Origin: Alphaproteobacteria bacterium | GTDB lineage: Bacteria; Pseudomonadota; Alphaproteobacteria; UBA11073 | Length of the DNA: 64,000 nucleotides | Direction of reading: 5' to 3' | Assembly (NCBI GenBank): GCA_965246755.1 | Contig: OZ251979.1 | Coordinates: 1,566,642-1,630,641, forward strand | Shown here: positions 25,466 to 47,441 of the stretch, piece by piece | Position numbering within the stretch: position 1 is the stretch's first letter | How the letters are laid out: every line of letters starts with the position of its first letter | Translations under genes and position numbers: made by a program | Notes under the pieces: generated by a model | The model's input: only the letters and a program-made list of their open reading frames with translations | Told to the model about the DNA's origin: nothing | Databases searched by the model: none

Positions 25466-25484
25466 TTGCTCTTGGAAGAATTTA

Positions 25485-25637
25485 GCCTCCCCCTTGTGGG
25501 GAGGCACAAAAATTAAAGGCGGCGCGCAGCAAAGCCATGTAATTTTTGGGTGGGGGACTTAATTTAAATCTACCAACCCCCACCCAAATTTTCATCGCTA
25601 CGCTGGAAAATTTGTGCCTCCCCACAAGGGAGGAGGC
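25485..25637. repeat. MITE-like compound palindromic element, copy A
   Basis: Outer hairpins gcctcccccttgtggggaggc and gcctccccacaagggaggaggc are inverted relative to each other; inner inverted repeat ttgggtggggg...cccccacccaa. Confidence 0.75.
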
Positions 25638-25658
25638 TGCACAGCGCTCAACATCAAT

Positions 25659-26804
25659 CTATCGCGTTGGACTATTCAAATCCCCGCCCACCGAAAATTC
25701 AGACAAATTAACAAAAGTTGATTTATCCTGGATAACTGCTTGCGGGATGATTTGCGGGCTATGCGTTTTGGCGATGTCCGGCATTTTTTTAACCGCGGTG
25801 CCAATCGCCATAAATTCAATGATGCCGTTGCCCAGATCATAAACATAGGTCTGCACGCCGAGGATATCATCGGCGCCGGCTTTATCCGCCTCCTGCTTTA
25901 ACTTATCAAAGGCGTTTTCGCGCGCGTCGTAAATAAGTGAGGTGAGTTCAGAAATCTCGCCGCGCACAAAGGATTTTATCATGCTGGTAAAACCGCCGAT
26001 AAAACCCAGCGAATAAACCGAAACACCCATGCACAGCCGCAGCGGCATATAGCCCATCGCGATTACATTCCACATCTCTTCATTGGTGAGATCACTAGTG
26101 ATGGGACTCTTGGTATGCAACGCAGGCAAATTCTCATGATAGGATGCCGTGCCGATCATCAACATTTCTACGACGCCGCCCTGAAACGGCAGGATCGAGG
26201 TTTTGATGCCGACCACGGCATTGGCGCCCACACCGCGCGCATCTTCGACAATGCGTTGCAACGCCAGATGCCGCGTATTATTGAACACCTGGCTGAATTC
26301 GGTAATTTCGCCGCGCCCGAGGCTACGCAACATGCCGAACAAGCCGCCGCCGAGACCGAGCGCATAGGCCACATTGCCGAAAGCAAAGCTGATCGGCTGG
26401 AACCCGCAATCTAGCTGACAGTATAACTCTTGGCCATCAGCTGAGGTTGAAAATTTATAATTTTCAGCGCTTTCGACACCTTTGGTATGCAACGCCGAAC
26501 CGATGCTCAAGAATTCGATATTCGGGCCATGCTGGACAATAGTGGAAGACACCCCAGTAATACCGCGGCTCCCGTGTTTCTTGGCCTCATTCTGTAACCG
26601 CTGGAATGACTCCAGCCGTCCTTCATGAATAACATTGGTGACCTGGGTTACCTCGCCGCCGATAAAGGTTTTGATGCCGGAGCCTAGGCTGCCCAAAAAG
26701 CCCAGTGAAAAAACGCTGTTACCGACCACGATATTGCCGGGCGCATAGCCCTTTTGGTCTAAACAATATAATTCATTGCCGGACAGCCCGGTGACAATCG
26801 CCAT
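25659..26804 (-). CDS. Triplicated YbjQ/UPF0145 (DUF74) domain protein
   Basis: Three tandem ~120-aa units, each with a G(G/R)GE(V/I)T/S..S...(ar)...A...L...A...GA(N/D).(V/I)(V/L)G(V/I) pattern typical of YbjQ. Confidence 0.7.
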   Translation of the reverse strand: MAIVTGLSGNELYCLDQKGYAPGNIVVGNSVFSLGFLGSLGSGIKTFIGGEVTQVTNVIHEGRLESFQRLQNEAKKHGSRGITGVSSTIVQHGPNIEFLSIGSALHTKGVESAENYKFSTSADGQELYCQLDCGFQPISFAFGNVAYALGLGGGLFGMLRSLGRGEITEFSQVFNNTRHLALQRIVEDARGVGANAVVGIKTSILPFQGGVVEMLMIGTASYHENLPALHTKSPITSDLTNEEMWNVIAMGYMPLRLCMGVSVYSLGFIGGFTSMIKSFVRGEISELTSLIYDARENAFDKLKQEADKAGADDILGVQTYVYDLGNGIIEFMAIGTAVKKMPDIAKTHSPQIIPQAVIQDKSTFVNLSEFSVGGDLNSPTR

Positions 26805-26836
26805 TAAAGTAAAACTCCAAACTATCCGTTATGTAT

Positions 26837-26973
26837 TCCTCTCCCTAGCAGGGAGAGGATAGAAACTCTTCGCGCACGCGTAGCATAAGCGGTTAGAATT
26901 TCTTGGTGAAGGGTGATTATAACAACCCCTCACCCGCCCCTAAAGGGGCACCCTCTCCCTCAAAGGGAGAGGG
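26837..26973. repeat. MITE-like compound palindromic element, copy B
   Basis: cctctccctagcagggagagg ... tgaaggg/cccctca ... cccgcccctaaaggggcaccctctccctcaaagggagaggg; right half ~85% identical to copy D. Confidence 0.75.
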
Positions 26974-27028
26974 AAAGTTGACCACCAATTGTATATTTTT
27001 CCCAGCAGAATCGCAATAAAACGATTTT

Positions 27029-27718
27029 ATGCCCGTTTACACATTATTCATCCTTGCTTGCATCATTTTACCCTATCTGATTGGTTCTATACCATTTGGA
27101 CTGATCCTGACCCGCGCCGCAGGCCTGGGCGATGTGCGTAAGATCGGCTCCGGCAATATTGGCGCAACCAACGTGCTGCGCACTGGGCGTAAGGACTTAG
27201 CGATTGCGACATTATTATGCGACGCGGCGAAGGGTGCGCTGGTCATTATCGCTTATCGCTATTTTATCGAACACAAGGTTATGCCGCAGATGGATTATTA
27301 TATGGGCATCACCTTTGGTGGCACACCTGCGCAAAAAGAACTTGTACAATGGTTGCCCTATGTGCCGCTGCTGGCGGGCGGCATGGTCATCATCGGCCAT
27401 ATGTTTTCCATTTGGCTGCGCTTTAAAGGCGGCAAGGGCGTTGCCACCTCGCTCGGCGTCATCACGGCGGTCAGCTGGCCGGTGGGAGTGGCAGCTTTTG
27501 GTACCTGGTTGCTGGTTGCTTTTGTCAGCCGTTATTCATCCCTGTCAGCAATGGCCGCCGCCGCCGCCGCGCCAATCTATGCCTGGTATTTTACCGACCA
27601 CGTAACCGCCCTTGCCTTTCTGGGTATTGCACTGCTCGTAATCACGAGGCATTACAAAAATATCAGAAATTTGCTGCAAGGCGCTGAAGCAAAAATTAAA
27701 TTAAAAAATTCCGTTTAG
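27029..27718 (+). CDS. plsY: Glycerol-3-phosphate acyltransferase PlsY
   Basis: GSIPFGL...GSGNIGATNVLR...KGGKGVAT motifs. Confidence 0.85.
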   Translation: MPVYTLFILACIILPYLIGSIPFGLILTRAAGLGDVRKIGSGNIGATNVLRTGRKDLAIATLLCDAAKGALVIIAYRYFIEHKVMPQMDYYMGITFGGTPAQKELVQWLPYVPLLAGGMVIIGHMFSIWLRFKGGKGVATSLGVITAVSWPVGVAAFGTWLLVAFVSRYSSLSAMAAAAAAPIYAWYFTDHVTALAFLGIALLVITRHYKNIRNLLQGAEAKIKLKNSV

Positions 27719-27996
27719 GGTTCGGATTTTGAACTCGTATTAAATTTTCTGATCATATTAACGTTGGTTTTTTTAGGTTTCATAATTATATCGTTTCCAG
27801 ACAAAACCTTAGTAAAAGAAGCTCTGTTTAATGGTGCGGTTATATTGTCATAGCTTGAATTATTGGATTTATGTAAAGAGTATACAGCAGCAGCAATAGG
27901 AGGAATACCAATAACAACTCCAATAAAAAATCCAGATACGATATGTGGAGCTATTTTTTTATTAGACATGTAGTTTTTCATAACATAAAATAGCAT
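27715..27996 (-). CDS. Hypothetical small single-TM protein (AT-rich)
   Basis: 93-aa ORF in a low-GC patch between plsY and dprA; one hydrophobic helix. Confidence 0.3.
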   Translation of the reverse strand: MLFYVMKNYMSNKKIAPHIVSGFFIGVVIGIPPIAAAVYSLHKSNNSSYDNITAPLNRASFTKVLSGNDIIMKPKKTNVNMIRKFNTSSKSEP

Positions 27997-28083
27997 ATTG
28001 TTTTACTTTCAACAAACAAATTAAAAATAATCCTTCCCATTCCCCCCAAAAGCCTGTTATAGCCCGCCGCGTTCGGACCAGCC

Positions 28084-29250
28084 TTGGGGGGCCTCATGCC
28101 GGTTACACCAGACACATATATAATAAGTGAGGCCGAGCGGCTGGCCTGGTTGCGCCTGTCGCGCAGTGAAAATGTCGGCCCCATCACCTTTAACCGCCTG
28201 CTGCGGCAATTCGGCTCTGCCGTCCGGGCGCTGGACGCCATCCCTGACCTGGCCCGCCGCGGCGGGCGCCTGCAAAAACTGAAGATCCAAAGTGAGGCGG
28301 ATGGCCGCGCGGAAATCCAGGCCCTTACCAAACTGGGGGCCCGGCACCTGTTATCCTGTGATGCCGCTTACCCCGCCATCCTGCGCCATTTGGAAGATGC
28401 GCCGCCGGTTTTGACGGTGAAGGGCAATCCGGCGCTGCTCGAAAAACCGATGGTCAGCATCGTGGGCGCGCGGAATGCCTCGCTGCCCGGCCGGCGCATG
28501 GCGGAAATTCTAGCCGCAGAATTGGGCCAAGCCGGCTATACTATCGTCTCCGGTCTCGCGCGCGGGATTGATACCGCCGCGCATGGCGCTAGCCTTACCG
28601 ACGGTACAGTGGCCGTGGTCGCGGGCGGTATTGATATTGTTTATCCGGCGGAAAACCAAACCCTGTATGACAAGATTTGCGCGCAAGGTATTGTAATTGC
28701 GGAAAATCCGCCAGGGGTGCCGCCCACCAACCGTGACTTTCCCCGCCGCAACCGCATCATCTCCGGCCTCGCCCTCGGCACCGTCATTGTCGAGGCTGCG
28801 CTGAAATCCGGCTCGCTCATCACCGCGCGTTATGCGCTGGAGCAAGGGCGCGAAGTGTTTGCCATCCCCGGCTCGCCCCTTGATCCGCGCGCCGGCGGTA
28901 CCAATAAATTAATCAAGGATGGCGCAACCCTGGTGGAAAGCGCCGCCGACATTATAAATGTGTTGCGAAATATGCAGGAACCAACCGCCCTTGCCGAGCC
29001 GTGGCAAACCTACCGCAATGCGCCGCTGCAATATGATGATAATGCCGTGGCGGTCGCACGGCGGCGCACGCTGACCGATTTGCTATCCTTCACCCCCGTA
29101 ACGCTGGATGAAATCCTGCGCACGGGCGAGGTCAATCCGGCGGCGCTCCACACTGCCCTGCTCGAACTTGAACTCGCCGGGCGCGCCCAGCGCCTGTCCG
29201 GCAACCGCGTTATTTTGGCGACTGATGATACAGAAATGAAGGCAATGTAA
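28084..29250 (+). CDS. dprA: DNA processing protein DprA (Smf)
   Basis: Rossmann-like DprA core IVSGLARGIDTAAHGASL..., C-terminal winged-helix region. Confidence 0.85.
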   Translation: MGGLMPVTPDTYIISEAERLAWLRLSRSENVGPITFNRLLRQFGSAVRALDAIPDLARRGGRLQKLKIQSEADGRAEIQALTKLGARHLLSCDAAYPAILRHLEDAPPVLTVKGNPALLEKPMVSIVGARNASLPGRRMAEILAAELGQAGYTIVSGLARGIDTAAHGASLTDGTVAVVAGGIDIVYPAENQTLYDKICAQGIVIAENPPGVPPTNRDFPRRNRIISGLALGTVIVEAALKSGSLITARYALEQGREVFAIPGSPLDPRAGGTNKLIKDGATLVESAADIINVLRNMQEPTALAEPWQTYRNAPLQYDDNAVAVARRRTLTDLLSFTPVTLDEILRTGEVNPAALHTALLELELAGRAQRLSGNRVILATDDTEMKAM

Positions 29251-31904
29251 TGGCACAAGATAACCTCGTCATCGTCGAAAGTCCGGCCAAAGCTAAAACC
29301 ATCGAAAAATATCTGGGGCCGGATTATAAAGTCCTCGCCAGTTTCGGGCATATCCGCGATCTGCTGCCCAAAGATGGCGCGGTGCGCCCCGATGAAGACT
29401 TCGCGATGGATTGGGTGCTGGGCGACCGTGCTCATAAAAATGTCAAAGAGATTGAACGCGCCGTTAAAACCTCTAAAACATTATATCTTGCGACCGACCC
29501 GGACCGCGAGGGCGAGGCCATTTCCTGGCATGTCAAAGAATATCTGGATGAAAAGAATTTATTAAAAGGCCGCACTATTCATCGCGTCACTTTTAACGAA
29601 ATTACCAAAAGCGCGATTCAGACTGCGTTTAAGCAGCCGCGGGAAATCAATGCCGAGCTGGTTGAAGCTTATCTGGCGCGCCGCGCGCTGGATTTTTTAG
29701 TCGGCTTTAACCTGTCGCCGATTTTGTGGCGCAAATTGCCGGGCGCACGGTCGGCGGGGCGGGTGCAGTCGGTCGCGCTGCGCCTCATCTGCGAACGTGA
29801 ATTTGAAATTGAACAGTTTAAGCCCCAAGAATATTGGTCAGTTGAAGCGCTGTTTCAAACGAATAGCGGCGCCACTTTTACCGCGCGGCTAACGCATTTT
29901 GACGGCCAAAAACTGGACAAATTTGCCATCAATAACGAAACGCGCGCGCAAGAGATTCTAGCCGCATTGCAAAAACAAAATTTTACCGTCAGCGATGTGA
30001 CGAAGAAAGAAGTCAAACGTCATCCGGCCGCGCCATTTATTACCTCAAGCTTGCAGATGGAAGCGTCACGCAAACTCGGTTTCGGCGCTAGCCAAACCAT
30101 GCGCACCGCGCAAAAACTTTATGAAGGCGTGACGCTGGGCGGCGAAACGGTCGGACTTATCACCTATATGCGGACTGATGGCGTGCAATTGTCCCAAGAT
30201 GCAATCTACTCCTGCCGCACGACGATTGATAAATTGTACGGCCAGGATTATTTGCCGGAACAACCACGCATCTATTCATCAAAAGCCAAAAACGCGCAGG
30301 AAGCGCATGAGGCAATTCGCCCCACCGATCTCGCGCGTACGCCTGATTACGTCGCCAAATATGTCGATCATGATCAGGCGCGGTTGTATGAATTGATCTG
30401 GAAACGCACGTTGGCCGCGCAGATGGCTAGCGCGGTTCTGGACCAGGCTACCGTCGATATTACCGGCACGAACAAGGCGGCGTTCCGCGCCACCGGTTCG
30501 GTGGTGAAATTCGACGGGTTTTTTAAACTCTATTTTGAAGATACTGACGATATGCCGTCTGACAGTGAGGATAATCGCCGCTTGCCGCCGCTGACTGTCA
30601 AAGACGCGTTGCAGACGAACAGCATTAAACCCGAACAGCATTTCACGCAGCCGCCGCCACGTTTCAGCGAGGCGTCGCTGGTCAAGGCCTTGGAAGAGCT
30701 TGGCATCGGCCGCCCTTCTACCTATGCCTCGATCATCCAGGTGTTGCAGGACCGCAATTATGTGCGGCTCGATAAAAAGCGTTTTGTGCCCGAAGATCGC
30801 GGGCGGATTGTCACAACCTTCCTTACCAATTTTTTCCGCCGTTATGTGGAATATGATTTTACCGCCGCGCTTGAAGGCCAGCTGGATGAAATTTCCGCCG
30901 GCGCGTTGGATTGGAAAGACATGCTGCGCAAATTCTGGGTCGAATTTATCGGCGCGGTCGATGAAACCAAACCACTTACCATCACGCAGGTGATTGATGT
31001 GCTGGATGCGGAGCTGGATAAGTTTTTATTTCCGCCGCGCGCAGATGGCAGTGATCCGCGCAAATGTCCGCGTGATAGTGGTCGCCTTGGTTTAAAGCTC
31101 GGTAAATTCGGCGCCTTTGTCGGCTGCTCGAATTATCCGGAGTGCAAAGAAACGCGGCCATTGGGTCTCGCCGAAAGCGCCGCCGCTGCCAACGGCGGCG
31201 GTGTGTTTGAACCGCGTGAAATCGGCATTGATCCTGACAGTGGTGAAGTTATCACCATCAAGCTTGGCCCCTATGGCCCTTATCTCGAACGGCCTAATGG
31301 TGACAACAAGCCCAAACGCGCGTCGTTGACGCCCGGCACCAACCTGGATGCCATTACGCTGGAAGATGCCGTCAAATTATTATTGCTGCCGCGCGAGGTG
31401 GGGATTTTCCCCGAAACCGGCGATCCGATTTACGCCAACGTCGGCCGGTTCGGGCCCTATATTCAAACCGGTAAATTGCTGGCGTCATTGCCCAAGGGTG
31501 AAACGGCGCAGGATATCGGCCCCAACCGCGCGGTGGATATTTTGATGGAGAAAATTGCGCGCAGCCTGCCGGTTAAAGAATTGGATAATCATCCAGACGA
31601 TGATGCGCCAATCGGCATTTATCGTAGCCGGTTTGGTTTTGTCATTCGTCATAATGATATCGAGGCGCGCCTTGCCAAAGGCACCGACCCACAAGACATC
31701 GACAGTGCCACCGCCATTTTGTTATTAAAGCAGATGGGCAAACCGGCGTTCAAATTTGGCAAGAAAAAGGGCAAAGGTAAAACCACCGCGCCAAAGAAAA
31801 CAGCTGTTAAAAAAACCGCCGTGAAAAAGACAGCTGCCAAAAAAACTGCCGCTAAAAAATCTGCGGTAAAAAAGACCGCCGCTAAGCAAGTTACGGCAAA
31901 ATAA
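29250..31904 (+). CDS. topA: DNA topoisomerase I with C-terminal Lys-rich (VKKTA)n tail
   Basis: TOPRIM N-terminus (LVIVESPAKAKTIEKYLG), catalytic Tyr region, C-terminal Zn-ribbon-like repeats, terminal KKTAVKKTAVKKTAAKKTAAKKSAVKKTAAK. Confidence 0.9.
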   Translation: MAQDNLVIVESPAKAKTIEKYLGPDYKVLASFGHIRDLLPKDGAVRPDEDFAMDWVLGDRAHKNVKEIERAVKTSKTLYLATDPDREGEAISWHVKEYLDEKNLLKGRTIHRVTFNEITKSAIQTAFKQPREINAELVEAYLARRALDFLVGFNLSPILWRKLPGARSAGRVQSVALRLICEREFEIEQFKPQEYWSVEALFQTNSGATFTARLTHFDGQKLDKFAINNETRAQEILAALQKQNFTVSDVTKKEVKRHPAAPFITSSLQMEASRKLGFGASQTMRTAQKLYEGVTLGGETVGLITYMRTDGVQLSQDAIYSCRTTIDKLYGQDYLPEQPRIYSSKAKNAQEAHEAIRPTDLARTPDYVAKYVDHDQARLYELIWKRTLAAQMASAVLDQATVDITGTNKAAFRATGSVVKFDGFFKLYFEDTDDMPSDSEDNRRLPPLTVKDALQTNSIKPEQHFTQPPPRFSEASLVKALEELGIGRPSTYASIIQVLQDRNYVRLDKKRFVPEDRGRIVTTFLTNFFRRYVEYDFTAALEGQLDEISAGALDWKDMLRKFWVEFIGAVDETKPLTITQVIDVLDAELDKFLFPPRADGSDPRKCPRDSGRLGLKLGKFGAFVGCSNYPECKETRPLGLAESAAAANGGGVFEPREIGIDPDSGEVITIKLGPYGPYLERPNGDNKPKRASLTPGTNLDAITLEDAVKLLLLPREVGIFPETGDPIYANVGRFGPYIQTGKLLASLPKGETAQDIGPNRAVDILMEKIARSLPVKELDNHPDDDAPIGIYRSRFGFVIRHNDIEARLAKGTDPQDIDSATAILLLKQMGKPAFKFGKKKGKGKTTAPKKTAVKKTAVKKTAAKKTAAKKSAVKKTAAKQVTAK
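31791..31885 (+). repeat. 15-bp tandem repeat (~6 units) encoding the (V/A)KKTA pentapeptide tail of TopA
   Basis: Units gttaaaaaaaccgcc / gtgaaaaagacagct / gccaaaaaaactgcc / gctaaaaaatctgcg / gtaaaaaagaccgcc. Confidence 0.8.
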
Positions 31905-31940
31905 GATGACAAACTTTGCCGAATGGGTTAAACTTTATTT

Positions 31941-32213
31941 ATGAAAATGGAGCTTAACCTGCCTGACAATTTACCGCCACCGCTGGTTAATCATATCGGC
32001 CAATTGCTTGACCGTATTCAAGATGATCCGTCGTTTGCCGAAGATATTTGGTTACACGATGATGCACCGGATAATTTTGTTATGACGCCGGAAATTCGCA
32101 CCAAAATTGAAGAGGGTTTGGCTGATATTGCTGTAGGACGTATTTTGACCTCTGAACAAGTTGATAAAAATTTGGCCGAATATCGGGCACAATGGCTAGC
32201 TCAGAACAATTAA
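31941..32213 (+). CDS. Putative antitoxin paired with the downstream ParE-like toxin
   Basis: 90-aa acidic protein; overlaps the toxin gene by 22 nt; C-terminal TPEIRTKIEEGLADIAVGRILTSEQV resembles addiction-module antidote proteins. Confidence 0.5.
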   Translation: MKMELNLPDNLPPPLVNHIGQLLDRIQDDPSFAEDIWLHDDAPDNFVMTPEIRTKIEEGLADIAVGRILTSEQVDKNLAEYRAQWLAQNN

Positions 32214-32524
32214 AGGTTATATATTCTGAAAGTGCCCAAAAAGATTTAAAGGAAATCTGGCGTTGGAATGCTAAAACTTATTGTTTAAATCATGCTGATA
32301 AATATATCGAACAGTTAAAGACAAAAATCTGTATTTTAGAATCGGACCCCCATCGTGGCACTGCAATAATTGAATATCAGGATTTACGGGGCCTGCTGAT
32401 TAAAAAACGTAACAGTAAACATGGGCATATGGCCTTTTATAAAATCAATCAAAGCACAATTTATATAGCGCGCATTCTACATACTGCAATGAATTGGCAA
32501 ATTCATCTAGATGGCAATGCATGA
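32192..32524 (+). CDS. parE: ParE/RelE-family type II toxin
   Basis: 110 aa; SAQKDLKEIWRW..., C-terminal HGHMAFYKINQSTIYIARILHTAMN matches the ParE H.I.YR....I.I.RILH..MD signature. Confidence 0.75.
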   Translation: MASSEQLKVIYSESAQKDLKEIWRWNAKTYCLNHADKYIEQLKTKICILESDPHRGTAIIEYQDLRGLLIKKRNSKHGHMAFYKINQSTIYIARILHTAMNWQIHLDGNA

Positions 32525-34473
32525 AACACACTAAACACCGCAAAGCTAAATCAAGCCCACCCAAAAGCGTCCAACACAAAAACGTGGCGCGAAAATTTGC
32601 CGCCGGTAAAATCAAACCGCAGGCGGCAGCAACGCGTCCCGCGATTGAGTCTGGTTTTGTCATGGGCATCGCCAAACGCCAGGGCAAAACATTTTTAATC
32701 GAAAGTGTTAGCAAGCGCGACCATAACAGCTATCAGCTCGCCGATGGTAAAAAACACGGCATCAACGATGGTGACCTGGTCAAAGTCAAACTTGACCCAC
32801 GCAGTAAGGAACACAAACTAAAACGCGTCGAATTTGTCGAGAATTTTGGTGATATCAACAATGCCGGTACCTTTAGCCTGATTGCCATCCATTCCCTTAG
32901 CATCCCGCATGAATTTCCGGAAGAGGCTTTGGCACAAGCCGCGCAAGGTGCGGTGCCGTCGCTGGGCGCGCGTGAAGATCTCCGCAACATATCGCTCGTC
33001 ACCATCGACGGTGCAGATGCGCGCGACTTCGACGATGCGGTCTTTGCCGAGCCCGACGGCAATGGCTGGCATCTGATTGTCGCGATTGCCGATGTGTCTT
33101 ATTATGTGCGGTCGGGCAATGCGCTGGACCAGGAGGCGTTTAACCGTGGCAATTCCGTCTATTTCCCCGACCGCGTCGTGCCGATGTTGCCGGAAGCGCT
33201 GTCCAATGACCTATGTTCACTGCGACCCAACGAACCGCGTGCGGCGATGGCCGTGCATCTATGGATTAATGCCAATGGAAATTTACAAAAACATAAATTC
33301 ACGCGTGCCCTGATCCGTTCGCATGCCCGGCTGACCTATGAACAGGTGCAGGAGGCACGCGACAGCAATGCCGACAAAACCACCACGGCGCTGATGGATA
33401 AAGTTATCAATCCATTATACAGCGCTTATCAGGCTTTGCTGAAGGCACGGCTTAAACGCGGTACGCTTGACCTCGATGTGCCGGAACGCAAAGTACAGCT
33501 GGGTGATGATGGCAAGGTTATTGCCATTGTGCCGCGCACGCGGCTCGACAGTCACCGGCTAATCGAAGAGTTTATGGTGTTGGCGAATGTCGCGGCGGCG
33601 ATGGAGCTTATCAAACATAAATCACCCTGTATCTTCCGCATCCATGACCATCCCGACGTCACCAAGCTGGATATTGCGCGCCAGGTGTTGAGCAGTATGG
33701 GATTGGAATTGGCGAAGGGCAATAAACTCGCGCCGAAAGATTTTACCAAACTGCTGGACGAAACGCGCGGGCGTGAGGATGCGCATGTCGTGCATCAACT
33801 GATTTTACGCAGCCAAAGCCAGGCGATCTACAGCCCCAACAACATCGGTCACTTTGGCCTCGCGCTGGAACGCTATGCGCATTTCACGTCGCCCATCCGC
33901 CGCTATGCGGATTTGATTGTACATCGCAGCCTGATCCGCGCGCTGGATTTGGGTGATGGTGGTCTTACGGATTATGAAGCCAAACAGGTCGATAAAATCG
34001 CCGAACATATTTCGGTCACCGAACGCCGCGCGGTCGAGGCCGAACGCCAGACCATGGATCGCTATACAGCTTCTTTTTTGGAAAATGAAGTCGGCGCGGT
34101 TTTCAACGCGCGTATTTCATCGGTCACACGCTTCGGTTTGTTTGTCACGCTAGACGACACCGGCGCAGATGGCATCATCCCCATGCGCAATTTGGGCGGT
34201 GATTATTTTACGCATGACGAGCCGCGCCAACAACTGGTCGGCCAACGCACCAAATATGTTTACAAGCTGGGGCAGCGTCTGACGGTAAGATTGCTGGAAG
34301 CCAATGTCTTGACCGGCGGCCTGGCGTTTGAGCCGGTCCAGCAAGTTTTGGAGCAGCCTGCCCCAAAAACAGCTGCAAAATCTTCTGCCGCCAAGCCGAC
34401 TGCCACCAGCCGCAGTTTTAAACAGCGTCCGGGCAGTGCCGCCCCGCAAAAACCTCGTCAACGTCGCCGCTAA
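32521..34473 (+). CDS. rnr: Ribonuclease R; start set at the ATG overlapping the parE stop (ATGA)
   Basis: RNB catalytic domain (FFPDRVVPMLPEALSNDLCSLRP, HFGLALERYAHFTSPIRRYADL), C-terminal S1 domain and basic tail. Confidence 0.85.
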   Translation: MKHTKHRKAKSSPPKSVQHKNVARKFAAGKIKPQAAATRPAIESGFVMGIAKRQGKTFLIESVSKRDHNSYQLADGKKHGINDGDLVKVKLDPRSKEHKLKRVEFVENFGDINNAGTFSLIAIHSLSIPHEFPEEALAQAAQGAVPSLGAREDLRNISLVTIDGADARDFDDAVFAEPDGNGWHLIVAIADVSYYVRSGNALDQEAFNRGNSVYFPDRVVPMLPEALSNDLCSLRPNEPRAAMAVHLWINANGNLQKHKFTRALIRSHARLTYEQVQEARDSNADKTTTALMDKVINPLYSAYQALLKARLKRGTLDLDVPERKVQLGDDGKVIAIVPRTRLDSHRLIEEFMVLANVAAAMELIKHKSPCIFRIHDHPDVTKLDIARQVLSSMGLELAKGNKLAPKDFTKLLDETRGREDAHVVHQLILRSQSQAIYSPNNIGHFGLALERYAHFTSPIRRYADLIVHRSLIRALDLGDGGLTDYEAKQVDKIAEHISVTERRAVEAERQTMDRYTASFLENEVGAVFNARISSVTRFGLFVTLDDTGADGIIPMRNLGGDYFTHDEPRQQLVGQRTKYVYKLGQRLTVRLLEANVLTGGLAFEPVQQVLEQPAPKTAAKSSAAKPTATSRSFKQRPGSAAPQKPRQRRR

Positions 34474-34534
34474 CGGCTTGAAAAATTCTGAATAGTCTGC
34501 GACAACAAGGCAGATTTTACTGGAGACGCTCCTG

Positions 34535-35434
34535 ATGTACCGCAAACTTAGCTTTTTGGCGCTGGCTACTGCCGCCCTGTCACTATCCGCCTGTGCCTAT
34601 ATGGACAGCAGCTTTGCGGTGGATCAGTTGAATAAAGCACAGCCGACCGGCTCGGAGTTTGCCAAACAGCTGACCGAGCAATATAAGGCACGCGCCAACG
34701 ACAGCCAGGACAGTACCCAAAATTACGAACAGGCCTATAATAACGCGTTGCGCGGTCTGCAAACCGCCGAAGGCCAAGAAGTGCCGCCCTACGCGCCTGA
34801 TCAATTTGACGTCGCGCCTGAAAAAACGGTCGAACTGACTGCGGCTCGCACCAAGTTAATAAACACCCTTAAAACTGCCAAGGCCAATGCGCCCAAGGAA
34901 GCCGCGCTGGCCCAGGCAAAATATGATTGCTGGGTGGAAGATGCCGCGAAAGATTGGGCGCCTGAGCAATATCAGGCTTGCCAGGCAGAATTCAAACAGG
35001 CGATGGATCAGCTGCAGGGTTTGAATGCCGAGCCGGTTAATATGACCGCGGGCGCTATGCCGCCGCAGGCCCAGCAAGCGTTGAATGCCGTGCCCGCCAC
35101 TGCCAATCAGTTCTTTGTGTTTTTTACCTTTAAGGGTAAGGATTTGCCGTATAGCGCAAAGGAAACGCTGGACATGGCGGCCCAGCAAATTATGGCCAGT
35201 CACCCGCGCATCGTTTATGTGATCGGCCATTCGGATGCCGCCGGATCCAAAAAATCCAAGCTGAAAATTTCACAACAGCGTGCCGCGGCGATTGCCGCCA
35301 GCCTGGTCACACGCGGTGTGCCAGCCAATATTATTGCCGCGCGCGGCGTGGGCGACACTATGCCATTGGTTAAGGTGCATAGCAAAGGCGGCAAGGAAGC
35401 CGCCAACCGCCGGGTTGAAATTCGCCTGCAGTAA
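34535..35434 (+). CDS. OmpA-family lipoprotein
   Basis: Lipobox LSLSAC; C-terminal OmpA-like domain (...IGHSDAAGSKKSKLKISQQRAAAIAASL..., RRVEIRL). Confidence 0.75.
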   Translation: MYRKLSFLALATAALSLSACAYMDSSFAVDQLNKAQPTGSEFAKQLTEQYKARANDSQDSTQNYEQAYNNALRGLQTAEGQEVPPYAPDQFDVAPEKTVELTAARTKLINTLKTAKANAPKEAALAQAKYDCWVEDAAKDWAPEQYQACQAEFKQAMDQLQGLNAEPVNMTAGAMPPQAQQALNAVPATANQFFVFFTFKGKDLPYSAKETLDMAAQQIMASHPRIVYVIGHSDAAGSKKSKLKISQQRAAAIAASLVTRGVPANIIAARGVGDTMPLVKVHSKGGKEAANRRVEIRLQ

Positions 35435-35443
35435 TCCCATCTA

Positions 35444-35854: not shown

Positions 35855-35875
35855 TGCAGATTTAGCTGTGAACGC

Positions 35876-36045
35876 CCGCCTCTCCCTGCAGGGAGAGGCC
35901 GAAATACTTAGCGTTAGCGCGCAGCGCCAAGCTTAGTATTTTGGGTGAGGGGGACATTACTAAGCGCAAAACTTTATAATTGACCAAAATCCAAATTCCC
36001 CCTCATCCGGCCTATCGGCCACCTTCTCACTGCAGGGAGAAGGGC
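35876..36045. repeat. MITE-like compound palindromic element, copy C
   Basis: cctctccctgcagggagagg; tgaggggga...tccccctca inverted repeat; cttctcactgcagggagaag. Confidence 0.75.
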
Positions 36046-36118
36046 GACAATTTCATAGATATGAGTTGTTTAACTAAATAACCTAGCCATCTTACCTTAT
36101 CGCGACTAAACTTTCCGC

Positions 36119-36919: not shown

Positions 36920-36924
36920 TCTTT

Positions 36925-37437: not shown

Positions 37438-37503
37438 TGTTTCTCCTTAATAATTAATATTGAAGCCACTCTGTCAGATTGCGCACAAATTTGTCAATAA
37501 ATT

Positions 37504-38620: not shown

Positions 38621-38681
38621 AGGTTGAAACGATCTGTTAAGCTTTTCGCGGTAAGTTTTTTTAAGTACTGGAGATGTATCA

Positions 38682-41212: not shown

Positions 41213-41225
41213 CGGTAACTCCTGA

Positions 41226-42794: not shown

Positions 42795-42888
42795 GGTAAA
42801 CCTTGAGGCGTAGGAAAGTGCCCCGCCGTGCCTCAACTATATAAGCATGTTAACGATAAAGGTAAATAATACGAAAAACAACTTTTCG

Positions 42889-43981
42889 TCATTCGTTCGG
42901 CAGTGTGACATCGTCATTTAAATTCGGCAGCAGCAGCGCGCCGCGGTTTTGTTTATCATGAATTTCAGCAACGGTTTGTTGCAAATTCCAAATTCGTTCC
43001 GCCGTGGCCGGATGGCTGCTGCCGTCGCGTAATGTCTCCGGCGCGTCATAGGCCATCTTTTGCATGGCAGTGATAGCGCCTTCCGGGTCAAACCCGGCAC
43101 GCGCAGCCAGATAAGCGCCCACATAATCCGCTTCACGTTCATAGGCCTGTTCAAACACTGCATCATTTATGTTTGCCCCAACATTGCCGCCCGCGGTATG
43201 AACGCCGCCCAAAGCTCCGCCAAGATTAACCATGCTGCTGATAATTTTACTTAGTAGCGTGCTGATAACACCGCGTTGGGGATGTTCAAACAAATTATGT
43301 GCCAGCTCATGGCCAACCACACCAGCTAGCTCATCATCGCCTTGCATCATATTCATCATCGATGGACTAACCCGTATGAGCCAGCCATTCGCATCGGCAT
43401 TCAACGCTTTATTGCGCTCATCAATTTTGAAGCCATAAGCGCATTTGAAAACCGGCACGATAGTTACCTTAACCTGCTTGCTTGTTTCAACATGCGTGAC
43501 CGTCAAGCTAACTGGATGATTTTGCCGCGCATCATGTTGCAAACGACGCATAACCTGCATTGCGCCGCGGTGGCCTTGGTCGACCGGTACTTCATCAATA
43601 GCATAAACCTTATCATTGTATTGGATCTGTTCGGTTTGGCCAGGTGCAGTTTCAGCGTTTGGTACTGTAATAACCGGCTGGGCATGCCCGCGGTTTTACC
43701 CGCAACAGAAACGACCGCATGACATAACGGCCGCACATATCACGATTGGCTACCAATAAACGGTTGGCAATCACCGCCAATCGGTCGGCGCGCGCATAAC
43801 GTTCGTCAGTCATTTGGTTGTCATCAAAATCCAATGGTGGCGTATCCAACGTTTCAATTTCGAAGGCATCAGCAGTCTGTTCCGTCATCTCGGTGGTTGC
43901 TTCAGGATATTTTGTGCGCGTGCCACAGGCCGACAGCAACAGTGAGATCAGACAGAGACAAGTAAAGTTTTTTGCGCGCAT
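42889..43981 (-). pseudogene. M48-family metallopeptidase lipoprotein interrupted by a +1-nt frameshift in a T4 run (43694-43697); candidate pseudogene or sequencing error
   Basis: N-terminal piece (43981..43652, lipobox LLSAC) and C-terminal piece (HELAHN Zn motif) are in different frames; removing one T from the T4 run restores a single ~364-aa ORF. Confidence 0.5.
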
Positions 43982-44109
43982 TATTATGTTTCGTTTACAT
44001 AATTTTTATATGCCATGCGTGCTGTTTTTGCACATGTATAATGCAACTGTGCAATCTGTTAAAAAAATGCTAGATTCGTTGCCTAAAACTTGAACAGGAG
44101 AATTTCAAG

Positions 44110-44775
44110 ATGGCAACTCAGAACAAAAATAATCTTTTATCCGAAATCACTGACGGTCTTGGCGATGCAATGGACGCATTCCAAAAACGTTGGGCGGACG
44201 GCGCCGGTACGGGACGCGGCAAATCTGCCAGCAAATCGTCAAGCCGCAGCACCTCCAGCCGGACTGGCGCGCGCAAAACCACTGCAAAAAAATCCAGCAC
44301 CGGCACGCGCAGCACAACTGCAAAAAAACCGACCGCTAAAAAATCAACGGCCAAAAAAACCACTGCCAAAAAATTAACTGCTGGCCGTAAAGCGACTACC
44401 ACCGCGCGCAAGGCAACCACTGCTGCCAAACGCAGCACAACTGCCACCCGCAAAACCGGCAGCGGCACGGCGCGTAAATCTGGTACTGCCGCACGCAGCA
44501 CCGCAAAAAAATCCACGGTGCGCAAGTCAACTGCCGGTAAGGCTACCAGCCGCACTGCCGGCAGCAAAGCCGCTGCCCGCAAGTCAACTGGCAGCAAAAC
44601 AACTGCACGTAAATCAACTACAAGTCGCAGCAGCACGACAGGACGTAAAGCCACCACTGCGGCACGCAAAGCAGTTTCAACTGCGAAACGTGCTATTGGT
44701 CGTGCAACGACTGGCCGTAAAACCGCTGGTCGCCCGTCAACGGCAAGCCGCACCGGTAGCAGCCGCAGCAGATAA
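44110..44775 (+). CDS. Histone-H1-like, highly basic low-complexity protein (A/T/K/R/S repeats)
   Basis: 221 aa; after a ~40-aa N-terminal region the rest is (A/T)(K/R)K(S/T)T-type repeats; followed by a strong terminator. Confidence 0.6.
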   Translation: MATQNKNNLLSEITDGLGDAMDAFQKRWADGAGTGRGKSASKSSSRSTSSRTGARKTTAKKSSTGTRSTTAKKPTAKKSTAKKTTAKKLTAGRKATTTARKATTAAKRSTTATRKTGSGTARKSGTAARSTAKKSTVRKSTAGKATSRTAGSKAAARKSTGSKTTARKSTTSRSSTTGRKATTAARKAVSTAKRAIGRATTGRKTAGRPSTASRTGSSRSR

Positions 44776-44795
44776 TTTCATCTGTGATATTTTTA

Positions 44796-44825
44796 AAAAG
44801 CGGGCTGTGGCCCGCTTTTTTTTAT
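44796..44825 (+). terminator. Rho-independent terminator
   Basis: aaaaagcgggctgtggcccgc hairpin plus T9. Confidence 0.7.
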
Positions 44826-44878
44826 TCATAATATGCTATAAATTATGTGACTGTAATACACTAACGATTGAGATAGTA

Positions 44879-45382
44879 ATGTTAAAATGCACCAGCCTGT
44901 TAGTTATATTATTAATGATACTCGGCCAGCCGCTACATGCGGAGACGCGTGATATTGGCGCAATAAGCACCGCCTTTAAGTTAATCGGCCCCAATCATAA
45001 AATTATTATTACTGCCTTTGATGATCCTAAGGTGCATGGTGTCACCTGTTATGTGGCGCGGCCGCGCACCGGCGGCATCAAAGGCGGGCTGGGTCTGGCG
45101 GAAGATCCTTCTATCGCCAGCGTGTCATGCGCGCAAACCGGGCCGATTACATTTTTAGGCAAGATCGCCAGCGATGACAGTGGTGAAAAGGTGTTTGATG
45201 AAAGCCGCTCGCTAATTTTCAAATCCCTGCAAATCGACCGCCTGTATGACAAAGGCAACGGCAGTTTAATTTATGTCGCGCGTACGACGCGCATCATCGA
45301 AGGCTCGCCCACTACATCAATCTCTGTTGTGGCGCCAGCCAGCTGGAATAACGTGCAGCCGCAATCGGCACCGCTGAAATAA
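44879..45382 (+). CDS. creA: CreA-family periplasmic protein
   Basis: Signal peptide, then TAFKLIGPNHKIIITAFDDPKVHGVTCYVARPRTGGIKGGLGLAEDPS...IFKSLQIDRLYD typical CreA. Confidence 0.75.
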   Translation: MLKCTSLLVILLMILGQPLHAETRDIGAISTAFKLIGPNHKIIITAFDDPKVHGVTCYVARPRTGGIKGGLGLAEDPSIASVSCAQTGPITFLGKIASDDSGEKVFDESRSLIFKSLQIDRLYDKGNGSLIYVARTTRIIEGSPTTSISVVAPASWNNVQPQSAPLK

Positions 45383-45408
45383 TATTTAAAACTAATCTGC
45401 CATTAAAA

Positions 45409-45484
45409 TGGTGCCTGGGATTGGAATCGAACCAACGACACAGGGATTTTCAATCCCTTGCTCTACCGACTGAGCTACCCAGGC
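45409..45484 (-). tRNA. tRNA-Phe (GAA)
   Basis: 76 nt incl. CCA; acceptor GCCTGGG/CCCAGGC, anticodon loop TTGAAAA, T-loop GGTTCGATTCC. Confidence 0.9.
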
Positions 45485-45490
45485 ACATCG

Positions 45491-46075
45491 TCAAACGATG
45501 TAAGGTTTATAACCCAAGCCTTGCAGCAATTGCAAGGTTTCACGCAGCGGCAAACCGATAATATTTGAAATGGTGCCGTTGATTTGCGTGACGAAGGCTT
45601 CGGCGCGGCCCTGAATGGCATAGGTCCCGGCCACGCCCTGCCATTCGCCGCTATTCAGATACCAATCCAAATCAGCCTTGGTTAATTGTTTAAACTGCAT
45701 GGCGCTAATCCCCACCCGCTGCGCAATTTTGCCGCCGGGCGCGATAATGCACAGGCCGGTTAAAACGCGATGGCTGCGGCCGGACAATAATTTTAAAAAA
45801 CGTGCGGCTTCATCTCTATTCTTAGGCTTGCCCAAGATCCGCCGTCCGACTGCAACCGTGGTATCGGCGGCAATCACAAAGGCTTGCTCATGTTGTGCAT
45901 GGATGGCTTTTGCCTTGGCTAGCGCTATACGCGCGACATAGGCCGGCGGTAATTCATCCTTCAACGGTGTTTCATCAATATCGGCAGGAATGACCTGGTC
46001 CGGTACAATGCCAATCTGTGCAAGCAATTCCAAACGGCGCGGGGATGCGGAGGCAAGTATAAGCTGCTGCGGCAC
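45491..46075 (-). CDS. maf: Maf-like nucleoside triphosphate pyrophosphatase
   Basis: LILASASPRRLELLAQIGI... Confidence 0.8.
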   Translation of the reverse strand: MPQQLILASASPRRLELLAQIGIVPDQVIPADIDETPLKDELPPAYVARIALAKAKAIHAQHEQAFVIAADTTVAVGRRILGKPKNRDEAARFLKLLSGRSHRVLTGLCIIAPGGKIAQRVGISAMQFKQLTKADLDWYLNSGEWQGVAGTYAIQGRAEAFVTQINGTISNIIGLPLRETLQLLQGLGYKPYIV

Positions 46076-46076
46076 C

Positions 46077-46295
46077 TTATTTATGACGATAAATAACCCG
46101 GCCTTTGGTCAGGTCGTATGGCGTCATCTCAACCCGTACTTTGTCCCCCGCTAAAATACGAATGCGGTTTTTACGCATTTTTCCGGAGGTGTGCGCCAAA
46201 ATGGCATGGCCGTTCTCAAGCTCAACCCGAAACATCGCGTTGGGGAGCAGTTCCTTGACCACCCCGTCAAATTCAATCAAATCTTCTTTAGACAT
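46077..46295 (-). CDS. infA: Translation initiation factor IF-1
   Basis: 72 aa; [28 protein letters not shown]... Confidence 0.9.
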
Positions 46296-46400
46296 AGCGC
46301 GGTTTTACGCGGCATAGCCTAGGATGACAAGCTAAATTAAGCCTTTAAAGGCTTTCTATAATTATGAAAGTAATAAAAAGTTTGCGCATGTAATTATTTA

Positions 46401-46799
46401 ATGATTAACTTAATAGATAAATCTAGGGAGATACAAATGAACCGGAGAGACCAGCTATTAAATGTTATTGGCATAATAGAAGATTATTTGAATTCTTTTG
46501 AATTTTGGGTGACCCGTGACGAAGACCTTACTTTGTTACTTAAGGCTGATAAGTGTTTTGAAAGCTTTCCCCGTCAAGAACAGGCTATTTTTAAAAAATT
46601 TGGTATTAATGTAACAGTAGAAGGAACTTTGTTGCGGTTGGATACGACGCAAGAAAATTTGAAAAGTAATCTTAGTAAGATGGTTTCTTATCGAGGAGGT
46701 TTTAATTGGGGACGCGTAAAAACTTTGCCAGAACCGCGACGAAATGATGCGCGTGTGTTTAGAAATGCTAGCCAATGGGGTGGCTGGGTTGGCCCTTAA
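46401..46799 (+). CDS. Hypothetical protein (AT-rich)
   Basis: 132-aa ORF in a low-GC patch; no family recognised. Confidence 0.3.
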   Translation: MINLIDKSREIQMNRRDQLLNVIGIIEDYLNSFEFWVTRDEDLTLLLKADKCFESFPRQEQAIFKKFGINVTVEGTLLRLDTTQENLKSNLSKMVSYRGGFNWGRVKTLPEPRRNDARVFRNASQWGGWVGP

Positions 46800-47276
46800 T
46801 CACCGCCGCTGCACCAGCAAGAACAACAGCGTATACAGCAACCGTGCCGTGCCAAGATCCATGGTCAGCTGCGGGGCGAGCTGTTGCATCACCATCTCCG
46901 CGCCTTCATTATGCATCGCGCGGCGGCCCATATCGATCGCCTCAATGCGCGCGCCAGGCGCCTGATGGCGCAGTGCCGAACCGTGCGCGCCAATAATCAT
47001 ATCATAATCCTGCATGATGCGTTTGAGCGGCGACATATAAATGGGAACGTCCAGCGGTTGTTCCAACAGCGGACCGCTCACATGCAGATGCAGCGCATGA
47101 TCAGTCAGGTCGAAAATAAAATTATAGGGTGGCGGGCCACCTTGCGAAAAGACCGCCGCACCTTCGCGGATTTCACCGCACACTGTTTCACAATCCTGGC
47201 GTAAGACATCGGGCAGGCGATCCAACGTGTTAGGCATGATGGTAACGGCGGTAAGACAGGTGCTGTTGAGGAACAT
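46800..47276 (-). CDS. UPF0262-family protein (possible alternative start at 47237)
   Basis: C-terminal ...RIEAIDMGRRAMHNEGAEMV... matches the conserved UPF0262 core; murA neighbourhood typical of alphaproteobacteria. Confidence 0.6.
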   Translation of the reverse strand: MFLNSTCLTAVTIMPNTLDRLPDVLRQDCETVCGEIREGAAVFSQGGPPPYNFIFDLTDHALHLHVSGPLLEQPLDVPIYMSPLKRIMQDYDMIIGAHGSALRHQAPGARIEAIDMGRRAMHNEGAEMVMQQLAPQLTMDLGTARLLYTLLFLLVQRR

Positions 47277-47316
47277 TAAAGTTTATAACAAAATATGTAT
47301 TACGCGCGAAGGACTT

Positions 47317-47441
47317 CCTTCTCCCTTTTAGGGAGAAGGTGGTGTGCAGCGCCGGATGAGGGGTATGATTAAGTTTAGAGAGATGAAATTACCCCCCTTA
47401 CCCGCCGCTAAAGGGGTACCCTGTCCCTAAAAGGGAGAGGG
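47317..47441. repeat. MITE-like compound palindromic element, copy D
   Basis: ccttctcccttttagggagaagg ... gatgagggg/cccccctta ... cccgccgctaaaggggtaccctgtccctaaaagggagaggg. Confidence 0.75.

Follow-up and report, generated by a model that had tools for sequence, protein, structure and literature searches.

Four intergenic repeats of an uncultured alphaproteobacterium are probably long-loop doublets of the BoxC/TM type

We analyzed a 64,000-nt stretch of DNA from an uncultured alphaproteobacterium (assembly GCA_965246755.1, contig OZ251979.1, positions 1,566,642 to 1,630,641; hereafter the window), in which an initial annotation had noticed four structured intergenic repeats, here called elements A to D. 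The elements are probably non-coding, non-autonomous doublets of the BoxC/TM type. This class has been known since the 1990s, and what differs in this lineage is the expansion of the second loop. Each element is a pair of facing half-units, and every half-unit carries the blocks of the E. coli motif.

Results

Relation to BoxC, PIT and TM_ECO

The motif CCCTCNCCC-N3-6-GGGNGAGGG-N3-GGGNGAGGG is the BoxC repeat described from E. coli in the 1990s (Holder 2015, PMC4666352). As that paper cites the earlier literature, the repeat was described by Bachellier (1990s), by Hoyne and Maher (2000/2002), who rediscovered BoxC as a potential intrastrand triplex (PIT) element, and by Holder et al. in 2015, who introduced the name TM_ECO (PMC4666352). 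Holder et al. counted 3,610 TM_ECO in 262 proteobacterial genomes, always intergenic, and showed by circular dichroism (CD) and NMR that, in vitro, single strands of the E. coli unit adopt a class II purine-motif triplex (PMC4666352). E. coli K-12 contains 23 units, of which 13 are single, and its five inverted pairs always combine two unit types (PMC4666352). The initial annotation could not assign the window repeats to any named family, but BoxC / PIT / TM_ECO blocks are present in each half-element.

A spacer of 10-44 nt, AT-rich and not conserved, separates the two facing half-units of an element. Read with the C-rich arm first, as throughout this text, a half-unit consists of a pyrimidine arm, a loop of 2-5 nt, the complementary purine arm, a second loop (loop 2) and a second G-rich block, or third block. 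This block mirrors the purine arm: G faces G, and A faces either A or T. Every one of the eight halves has a third block that scores between 7/8 and 9/10 triads; compared with random 60-nt segments of the window, each has P of 0.006-0.11. The hairpin arms have no or one mismatch in seven of eight cases, and the degenerate arm of A-right has two. Loop 2 is a mini-hairpin of 13-15 nt in four halves (B-right, C-right, D-left, D-right) and a nested hairpin of 30-45 nt in the others (A-left, A-right, B-left, C-left). The segments that separate the terminal hairpin from the inner repeat are hence hairpins themselves, a feature that had been missed.

Three unit types can be distinguished. R-type units combine the pyrimidine arm CCCTCTCCC, the purine arm GGGAGAGGG and the third block GGGTGAGGG; in L-type units these blocks are CCTTCTCCC, GGGAGAAGG and GGATGAGGG, and in units of copy A they are CCTCCCC, GGGGAGG and GGTGGGG. 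The C-rich 9-nt arm CCCTCNCCC of the published motif is found in B-right (CCCTCTCCC) and in C-left (CCTCTCCCT); the L-type arm is one change off, and the arm of copy A is a divergent form relative to that of TM_ECO. The first loop and the complementary arm GGGNGAGGG recur as well, with loops of 2-5 nt here against 3-6 nt in the pattern, and a mirror second G-rich block (GGGNGAGGG, triad-compatible) is present in all eight halves. The E. coli stems recur without change in B-right and C-left (CCCTCTCCCT/AGGGAGAGGG and GGGTGAGGG). Unlike units are paired here too: D joins an L to an R unit, C an R to an L unit, and B a long-loop to a short-loop unit. In the one E. coli pair whose sequence we inspected, at hrpB/mrcB, the block order is the same as in the window elements and the loops are 3 nt long. 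Because loop 2 is 13-15 or 30-45 nt long here and so exceeds the 3 nt of TM_ECO, the elements are filed as a variant and not as strict TM_ECO. A literature search with L-type sequence strings returned nothing relevant, and none for BoxC/PIT/TM found work later than 2015-2016.

Position, reality and structure of the four elements

The initial annotation had placed four copies in the window, all of them intergenic, and each was recovered at its place; our count is likewise four within the 64 kb. The refined bounds are 25485-25637 (A), 26836-26973 (B), 35878-36043 (C, with an outer stem at 35873-36047) and 47315-47443 (D). The structured elements measure 129-175 bp and occupy 4 of the 18 intergenic gaps of at least 100 bp; none occurs elsewhere in the window, and eight other long gaps lack a comparable inverted repeat. 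Allowing at most one mismatch, AGGGAGAGG occurs 17 times in the window against 3.8 +/- 1.9 expected, a number reached in 0 of 100 shuffles, and 12 of the 17 occurrences lie inside elements. Likewise, GGGTGAGGGG with at most one mismatch is present six times against 1.95 expected, five times inside elements. A window scan for pyrimidine-first hairpins of this type returned only the four elements and, by chance, tRNA-Thr. The right halves of B and D, initially judged to be about 85% identical, align with 88% identity over 57 nt (26926-26982 and 47394-47450).

Folding was computed for single-stranded DNA (ssDNA) with DNA energy parameters (ViennaRNA; Watson-Crick pairs only), with 200 shuffles for each element. 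The fold energies are -50.0 (A), -36.9 (B), -44.6 (C) and -26.5 kcal/mol (D), with z scores of -8.76, -6.66, -6.69 and -4.60, respectively, and 0 of 200 shuffles fold equally well. The minimum-energy fold of B is a row of five local hairpins. The description of each copy as one long imperfect palindrome captured the palindromes, yet the conserved entity is instead the half-unit, a hairpin with a mirror-image third block. Terminal hairpins of the predicted form are indeed present, with loops of 2-5 nt where 4-5 nt had been given. The proposal of one shared architecture holds overall, with copy A standing apart as a divergent subtype that has CCTCCCC/GGGGAGG stems and a GGGTGGGGG/CCCCCACCC inner repeat.

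Element A lies between the convergent 3' ends of xth and a gene that we refer to as 3xYbjQ (25659-26804, minus strand; 381 aa, three YbjQ (PF01906) domains). Its left half, on the plus strand, comprises the terminal hairpin GCCTCCCC-CTTGT-GGGGAGGC (25485-25505), a loop 2 of 42 nt (25506-25547) that forms a nested hairpin with GCGCGCAGC, and the third block GGGTGGGGG (25548-25556), which mirrors GGGGAGG with T opposite A (7/8 triads, P=0.006). The right half is on the minus strand, with a third block at 25577-25585 that reads CCCCCACCC on the plus strand, a 30-nt loop 2 (25586-25615) and the terminal hairpin GCCTCCCC-ACAA-GGGAGGAGGC (25616-25637).

Element B lies between divergent gene starts, 31 nt from that of the 3xYbjQ gene and 55 nt from that of plsY, so that A and B bracket a single gene, as had been pointed out. 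On the plus strand its left half has the terminal hairpin TCCTCTCCCT-AGC-AGGGAGAGGA (26836-26859), a 45-nt loop 2 with a nested hairpin (26860-26904) and the degenerate third block GGTGAAGGGTG (26905-26915; 8/10 triads, P=0.11, the weakest of the eight). In the right half, on the minus strand, the third block (26926-26935; 9/10 triads) reads CCCCTCACCC on the plus strand and GGGTGAGGGG on the other. It is followed by the loop-2 mini-hairpin GCCCC-TAAA-GGGGC (26936-26950), which is also found in Rhodanobacter, in a pond metagenome-assembled genome (MAG) and in a cyanobacterial MAG, and by the terminal hairpin CCCTCTCCCT-CAA-AGGGAGAGGG (26951-26973), whose stems are identical to those of E. coli TM_ECO.

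Elements C and D are located between co-directional genes, C in the apaG/cysQ gap and D in the gap that separates murA from a UPF0262 gene, two genes of the minus strand. The left half of C (plus strand) consists of the terminal hairpin GCCTCTCCCT-GC-AGGGAGAGGC (35878-35899), a 44-nt loop 2 (35900-35943) in which a AAATACTTAGC/GCTTAGTATTT stem surrounds GCGC-GCA-GCGC, and the third block GGTGAGGGGG (35944-35953), which was given a triad score like the others. Its right half (minus strand) is of the L type: the third block (35998-36008) reads CCCCCTCATCC on the plus strand and GGATGAGGGG on the other, loop 2 is the mini-hairpin GGCC-TATC-GGCC (36009-36021), and the terminal hairpin is CCTTCTCACT-GC-AGGGAGAAGG with one mismatch (36022-36043). 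D begins on the plus strand with the L-type terminal hairpin CCTTCTCCCT-TTT-AGGGAGAAGG (47315-47339). Its left loop 2, TGGTGTGCAGCGCCG (47340-47354), is a GCA-triloop mini-hairpin (GGTGT-GCA-GCGCC) with two G-T pairs, and the A of the third block (G)GATGAGGGG (47355-47363; 9/10 triads, P=0.009) matches the extra A of AGGGAGAAGG. The right half of D, on the minus strand, has a third block that reads CCCCCCTTACCC on the plus strand (47392-47403), the loop-2 mini-hairpin GCCGC-TAAA-GGGGT (47404-47418) and the terminal hairpin CCCTGTCCCT-AAA-AGGGAGAGGG (47419-47443).

Co-variation of the hairpin and the third block

R and L units differ jointly in all three strands at a single triad, which is C-G·G in the former and T-A·A in the latter. 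This relation was followed in metagenomes with the L-type pattern GGGAGAAGGTG-N8-14-GGATGAGGG; all counts of metagenome units given here are among the matches listed, which comprise at least 120 stretches on contigs with GC 0.40-0.73 and 137 units. An inverted partner is present for at least 56 of the 137 L-type units. These 56 partner units were not selected by the search pattern and form the co-variation set, in which the third block was sought within 50 nt. A 9/9 compatible third block is found in 48 of the 56, compared with 0.6% of controls. When hairpin type is set against third-block type, 27 units are L/L, 20 are R/R and 2 are mixed. Loop 2 of the partner units spans 3 to 41 nt.

Loop 2 is itself structured. 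A stem of at least 4 bp occurs in the loop 2 of 105 of the 137 L-type units, against 9% of shuffles, and at least 18 distinct loop-2 stems close GAA (56), GCA (18) or GTA (6) triloops. These loops correspond to the mini-hairpins of the GCGNAGC/CCGAAGG kind, which are extraordinarily stable as DNA and far less so as RNA and which are found at single-strand replication-initiation sites (PMC13037366). RNA, moreover, does not form purine-motif triplexes (Holder 2015, PMC4666352). Because the hairpin and the third block co-vary, the GNA mini-hairpins are stable as DNA and RNA is barred from the triplex, we favour a reading of the sequences in which the units would fold as single-stranded DNA.

The same E. 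coli motifs have been interpreted differently, as a quadruplex/hairpin switch, in a report that describes quadruplex-like CD spectra (Kaplan 2016, PMC5100583). Four G-runs (GGG AGA GGG ... GGG TGA GGG) would here form a quadruplex in competition with the hairpin, and R-type units (B-right, C-left) do have four runs of at least three G. Two of the four G3 runs are, however, broken in L-type units, which have the sequence GGGAGAAGG ... GGATGAGGG (D-left, C-right and over 130 units from metagenomes), and this speaks against conservation of a three-tetrad quadruplex. L-type units nevertheless keep perfect triad compatibility, and their pyrimidine arm shows the corresponding change from C to T. For a quadruplex, central loops of 13-45 nt would also be long, and NMR excluded this structure for the E. 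coli oligonucleotides (Holder 2015, PMC4666352). We therefore consider a quadruplex switch very improbable.

Action at the level of RNA, with transcribed hairpins that end, stabilize or process mRNA or occlude ribosome-binding sites, has more to recommend it and is still unlikely. In its favour, hairpin stability is very high, the genes on either side of C and of D are co-directional, and those beside A converge with their 3' ends. A sigma-70-like sequence, TTGCGA-17-TACAAT (27016-26988, minus strand; a consensus match only), is located in the 55-nt gap between B and plsY and would transcribe through B into the 3xYbjQ gene. On predicted viral contigs that carry the third block (among IMG/VR entries L001-L117) the flanking open reading frames (ORFs) are encoded on the C-rich-first strand in 39 cases and on the opposite strand in 18, a weak bias of about 2:1 that is pseudo-replicated by related contigs. 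Against these points, no copy is followed by a T-run and a terminator scan calls no terminal hairpin; within the elements the scan marks a single internal site (26947-26926), and the total of terminator and promoter consensus matches is no higher than in shuffles. B, moreover, lies between divergent genes, and GNA-triloop mini-hairpins, like purine-motif third strands, characterize DNA and not RNA. As cited in Holder 2015 (PMC4666352), Hoyne and Maher saw no promoter or terminator activity for E. coli units.

Derivation from a known structured RNA, which the initial annotation had proposed to check, was not borne out in Rfam, where no family scored at or near its gathering threshold for the elements. 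Only two tRNAs pass the threshold in the window, and a search with E-values up to 10 returned nothing meaningful. The best hits by E-value on A and B were to miRNA-precursor models, with 15-25 bits against thresholds of 37-117.

Distribution beyond the window

Related elements are widely scattered. In a pattern scan of genome contigs the right arm shared by B and D, CCCTCACCC-GCCCCTAAAGGGGC-A-CCCTCTCCC..., recurs in three places, a Rhodanobacter MAG, a pond MAG and a cyanobacterial MAG. The Rhodanobacter MAG (GC 0.65) carries a complete doublet, the left arm of which also matches D. With BLAST, element D matches unannotated intergenic DNA on Xanthomonas, Shinella, Rhizobium, Neorhizobium and Pararhizobium plasmids. 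The doublet of Xanthomonas sacchari sits in the sufB/sufC spacer, and both units of the doublet on the Shinella plasmid are of the L type. Among relatives of the host, the contig referred to as L125 has a D-type doublet in the 178-nt spacer between argS and an HD gene, and another relative has an A-type doublet. In the L125 doublet (4022-4182), a perfect 18-nt palindrome, CTGAACGTATACGTTCAG, is nested in the purine arm of the left hairpin, so that one repeat sits inside another.

A search of viral contigs with just the terminal hairpin retrieved 117 stretches; by our own arithmetic (18 fixed bases, three gap lengths) roughly 2x10^10 bases would hold one match to this hairpin by chance. Of 142 hairpins on viral contigs, 80 adjoin a CCCTCACCC or GGGTGAGGG block. 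Two of the IMG/VR entries, L010 (4.8 kb; 493-3230) and L006 (1831-6888), are genuine phage contigs with genes for a terminase large subunit, a portal and a head protease, and TM-like hairpins are present in most of their intergenic positions. In L010 one such hairpin is in frame within the terminase ORF and is translated as ...(ETYSPTQ)x4-ETYSQPLPKGRGGRGEEEKK.... Holder 2015 (PMC4666352) reported no association of TM motifs with phages.

The fate of a doublet within a species was followed at the hrpB/mrcB spacer in 5,426 complete E. coli genomes (L129, L255-L257), where three alleles occur: a full doublet, a collapsed form that consists of the single hairpin CCCTCTCCCTGTGGGAGAGGGG, and a form with no element. 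The collapse of a doublet to a single hairpin has been described as a "palindrome effect" (Holder 2015, PMC4666352). In the no-element allele about 115 nt are replaced by 12 different nucleotides; the flanks are replaced and no target duplication is seen. About 1,890 genomes have less than 80% coverage of the spacer region, the class that contains this allele. A second E. coli doublet region recurs in 7-14 places per genome with about 87% identity over about 168 nt, and the repeat is thus similar in length to the window elements. The sequence around TM loci is reported to be more variable than that of control spacers and of random hairpins (Holder 2015, PMC4666352).

Gain, loss and synteny

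The host has Rhodospirillales-like affinity, and its 1.93-Mb source contig carries FlaF, DUF1217 and UPF0262 genes that are consistent with this placement. The nearest MurA is 69% identical and the nearest Xth 59%. Junctions were compared with those of relatives (58-69% protein identity), two of which keep the gene order argS, HD gene, xth, plsY, dprA, topA, apaG. Both have xth and plsY adjacent, with spacers of 8 nt and 82 nt, where the window has A, the 3xYbjQ gene and B (25466-27028). Conversely, L125 has its doublet in the spacer between argS and the HD gene, and these two genes overlap by one base in the window. Downstream of apaG the window has C and then cysQ, and L125 has folE. Downstream of murA the window has D and then the UPF0262 gene, whereas in the relative L122 a DUF2948 gene abuts murA. 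L122 was considered as a clean empty site for D and rejected, as the downstream gene differs between the two (DUF2948 there, UPF0262 in the window, by Pfam); D therefore marks a synteny break and not a simple insertion. All four window elements lie at junctions that differ from the relatives, which is suggestive and not decisive because about half of all junctions differ at this distance.

The bracketed gene encodes three YbjQ/UPF0145 domains, and its best homologues (66% identity) are from Firmicutes, Eremiobacterota, Cyanobacteria and Armatimonadota, not from Alphaproteobacteria. One might suppose that A and B are integron attC-like recombination sites that delimit a captured gene. The block of A, gene and B is absent at xth/plsY in the two relatives, the best homologues come from other phyla, and attC sites, which act as ssDNA, are likewise imperfect palindromes of about this size. 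But the 66 window ORFs include no integrase, RYYYAAC/GTTRRRY cores are lacking at the ends of the elements, C and D flank ordinary core genes, and the location of two of four elements in adjacent gaps is not very improbable (about 0.2, by our own estimate). A and B are also of different subtypes, and the 3xYbjQ homologues that we inspected in other phyla have no such flanking elements. For these last two reasons, and given that the gene matches the host in GC and in GC at third codon positions (GC3), a composite transposon or cassette made of A, the gene and B was rejected, and cassette boundaries appear extremely improbable.

Several further differences and repeats were observed along the window. 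The xth/plsY spacer of L125 (6181-6262) contains an unrelated palindrome of about 70 nt, AGAAGCTAGAGGCTAGAAGCTAGA ... TCTAGCTTCTGACCTCTAGCCTCTAGCTTCT. Between topA and apaG (31941-35434) the window has a ParE-type toxin module (31941-32524) and genes for an RNase R-like protein and an OmpA-like lipoprotein; in L125, apaG comes directly after topA. Direct repeats of about 90 nt that are about 96% identical (10655-10745 and 11430-11518) flank a BrnT/BrnA toxin-antitoxin pair (10739-11315, minus strand). The right copy falls in the 3' end of an lpdA-like gene (11426-12826, minus strand), and the cassette thus seems to have been inserted with a duplicate of the end of that gene. Repeats with a 15-nt period encode Lys/Ala-rich (AKKTA-like) tails at the TopA C-terminus (31785-31897) and in a histone-H1/HC2-like ORF (44314-44381 in 44110-44775). 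Near-identical terminator-like hairpins, AAAAGCGGGCTG(C/T)GGCCCGCTTTTT, are found at 10250-10275 and 44796-44819.

Mobility in trans

The initial annotation had described the elements as MITE/REP-like, that is, akin to miniature inverted-repeat transposable elements (MITEs) or repetitive extragenic palindromes (REPs). This is apt in so far as they are multi-copy, structured, non-coding, and gained or lost among relatives; the MITE label itself finds no support, with no target-site duplication and no transposase relative in the window. A classical MITE is a deletion derivative of an insertion sequence (IS) that a transposase moves in trans by its terminal inverted repeats, leaving a target-site duplication. 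A size of 129-175 bp would fit, as would the terminal inverted repeats, the location between genes and the variable presence among relatives. However, the search for duplications that had been recommended found no direct repeat flanking any of A to D, the filled and empty E. coli alleles at hrpB/mrcB have replaced flanks and no duplication, and none of the 66 window ORFs matches a transposase or integrase family in Pfam or NCBIfam. Each "terminal repeat" is itself palindromic, and single units exist as well (13 of 23 in E. coli; pairing is shown for at least 56 of the 137 metagenome units). A classical MITE is thus quite improbable.

REPINs, in which two inverted REP hairpins are moved as ssDNA by a REP-associated tyrosine transposase (RAYT; an IS200/IS605-like Y1 transposase), come closer in layout. 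The elements are doublets of self-palindromic hairpins in inverted orientation, and the signs of ssDNA folding would suit an HUH/Y1 enzyme. RAYT-associated REPs carry a conserved 5' GT[AG]G tetranucleotide, and the window hairpins, which lack it, begin with TTCC, CCC or GCC. A third mirror block is foreign to REPs, and the Pfam and NCBIfam search of the 66 ORFs found no Y1 transposase gene in the window. Mobility genes are likewise absent near E. coli TM sites (Holder 2015, PMC4666352). REPINs are accordingly a decidedly unlikely origin of the elements.

Discussion

The anatomy of the elements, their homology to BoxC/TM, the co-variation of their blocks, their gain and loss and their position at synteny breaks were observed directly in this analysis. 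Several points weigh against the identification as BoxC/TM doublets that fold as ssDNA and accompany rearrangement. A loop 2 of 13-45 nt breaks the published 3-nt pattern of TM_ECO, and the triplex data are from E. coli units only. The third block of B-left is weak (P=0.11), and the copy number is that of the 64-kb window. The L/R co-variation could reflect two subfamilies that spread as blocks and not independent compensatory changes. Double-stranded E. coli units gave no triplex signal (Holder 2015, PMC4666352), and earlier work, as that paper cites it, saw no effect in vivo (PMC4666352). The relatives are distant (58-69% protein identity), about four of eight junctions differ from L125 in any case, and the doublet of that relative lies at a conserved junction. 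Finally, the GC and GC3 of the bracketed 3xYbjQ gene are host-like.

Our working model, plausible though short of probable, is that ssDNA folds of the units hinder polymerases and single-strand binding proteins and so promote rearrangement and the spread of the elements. The elements encode nothing and would act independently of orientation. Whenever DNA is transiently single-stranded during replication, transcription or transfer, a unit may fold into a very stable, compact structure in which the loop-2 mini-hairpin would provide a tight turn next to the hairpin and the third block would lie back on the purine arm. Such folds could impede polymerases and exclude single-strand binding proteins, and breaks, template switching and illegitimate recombination might follow. 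The outcome would be local rearrangement, entry of foreign DNA beside elements, collapse of doublets, and the copying of elements to new intergenic sites, perhaps assisted by a putative enzyme that acts on ssDNA. Triplex formation in vitro and excess local variability have been shown by others for E. coli units, and their extension to the window elements is by analogy. We infer from these patterns that the units may fold in vivo, that they may be linked to rearrangement in this genome, and that they may spread in this way.

A bolder proposal, which we regard as rather doubtful, is that hairpin, GNA mini-hairpin and mirror block form a conserved ssDNA fold recognized by a putative host or mobile enzyme, for example an HUH-type nuclease or a primase. 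Doublets would then be active mobile or priming elements that cross phyla and enter phages, even in frame within genes, and that nucleate gene insertion, as A, the 3xYbjQ gene and B might illustrate.

BoxC/TM repeats are among the few non-coding DNA motifs whose sequence is conserved between phyla and at GC contents that range from about 0.3 to 0.7. The published search pattern, with loops of at most 6 nt, misses a large long-loop branch of the family, in which the co-variation of hairpin and third block holds whatever the loop length and loop 2 typically forms a DNA-specific mini-hairpin. The elements mark junctions that were gained, lost or rearranged in a small alphaproteobacterial genome. 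These findings sharpen, without settling, the hypothesis that the repeats act as ssDNA. Annotators should mask the elements as repeats and avoid calling them small RNAs or ORFs.

Comparison with known systems

The elements share features with several known kinds of repeats. MITEs such as Correia/NEMIS and ERIC/IRU are similar in size, intergenic position, fold-back structure and presence/absence polymorphism; they differ in having target-site duplications (TA for Correia), IS-like terminal repeats and a species-restricted sequence, none of which is seen here. REP, BIME and REPIN elements are also short extragenic palindromes, with paired inverted hairpins as the functional unit and probable activity as ssDNA. 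In contrast to the species-specific REPs, the window family has a third mirror block and a sequence conserved across phyla.

RIME elements (Rhizobium-specific intergenic mosaic elements; Osteras 1995) are reportedly intergenic mosaics of about 100 bp with large palindromes in Rhizobiaceae. The plasmids of Shinella, Rhizobium, Neorhizobium and Pararhizobium that match element D in unannotated intergenic DNA point in the same direction, and RIME elements may be the same thing as the window elements. ssDNA initiation signals and origin hairpins of the phage G4 type likewise contain GCGNAGC/CCGAAGG mini-hairpins inside a larger ssDNA structure (PMC13037366), and the loop 2 of L-type units very often has exactly this form (GCCGAAGGC, GGCGCGAAGCGCC). 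The window elements differ in being chromosomal and dispersed, with both orientations in every doublet, and there is no evidence of priming.

The closest resemblance is to BoxC/TM_ECO itself. The window loop 2 is 13-45 nt long and hairpin-forming where that of E. coli is exactly 3 nt (TTA or CCG), and the window L subtype has a T-A·A triad that replaces C-G·G. Whereas E. coli units are mostly single, each of the four window copies is a doublet; the host is an uncultured Rhodospirillales-like alphaproteobacterium, and related units also occur here in plasmid and phage contigs, where Holder 2015 (PMC4666352) did not find them. Common to both are the same three-block order with identical or nearly identical stems (CCCTCTCCCT / AGGGAGAGGG / GGGTGAGGG), a strictly intergenic position, and a patchy, lineage-specific copy number. 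In both, too, inverted pairs of unlike units surround a short unconserved spacer at loci that are prone to change, and doublets may collapse to one hairpin.

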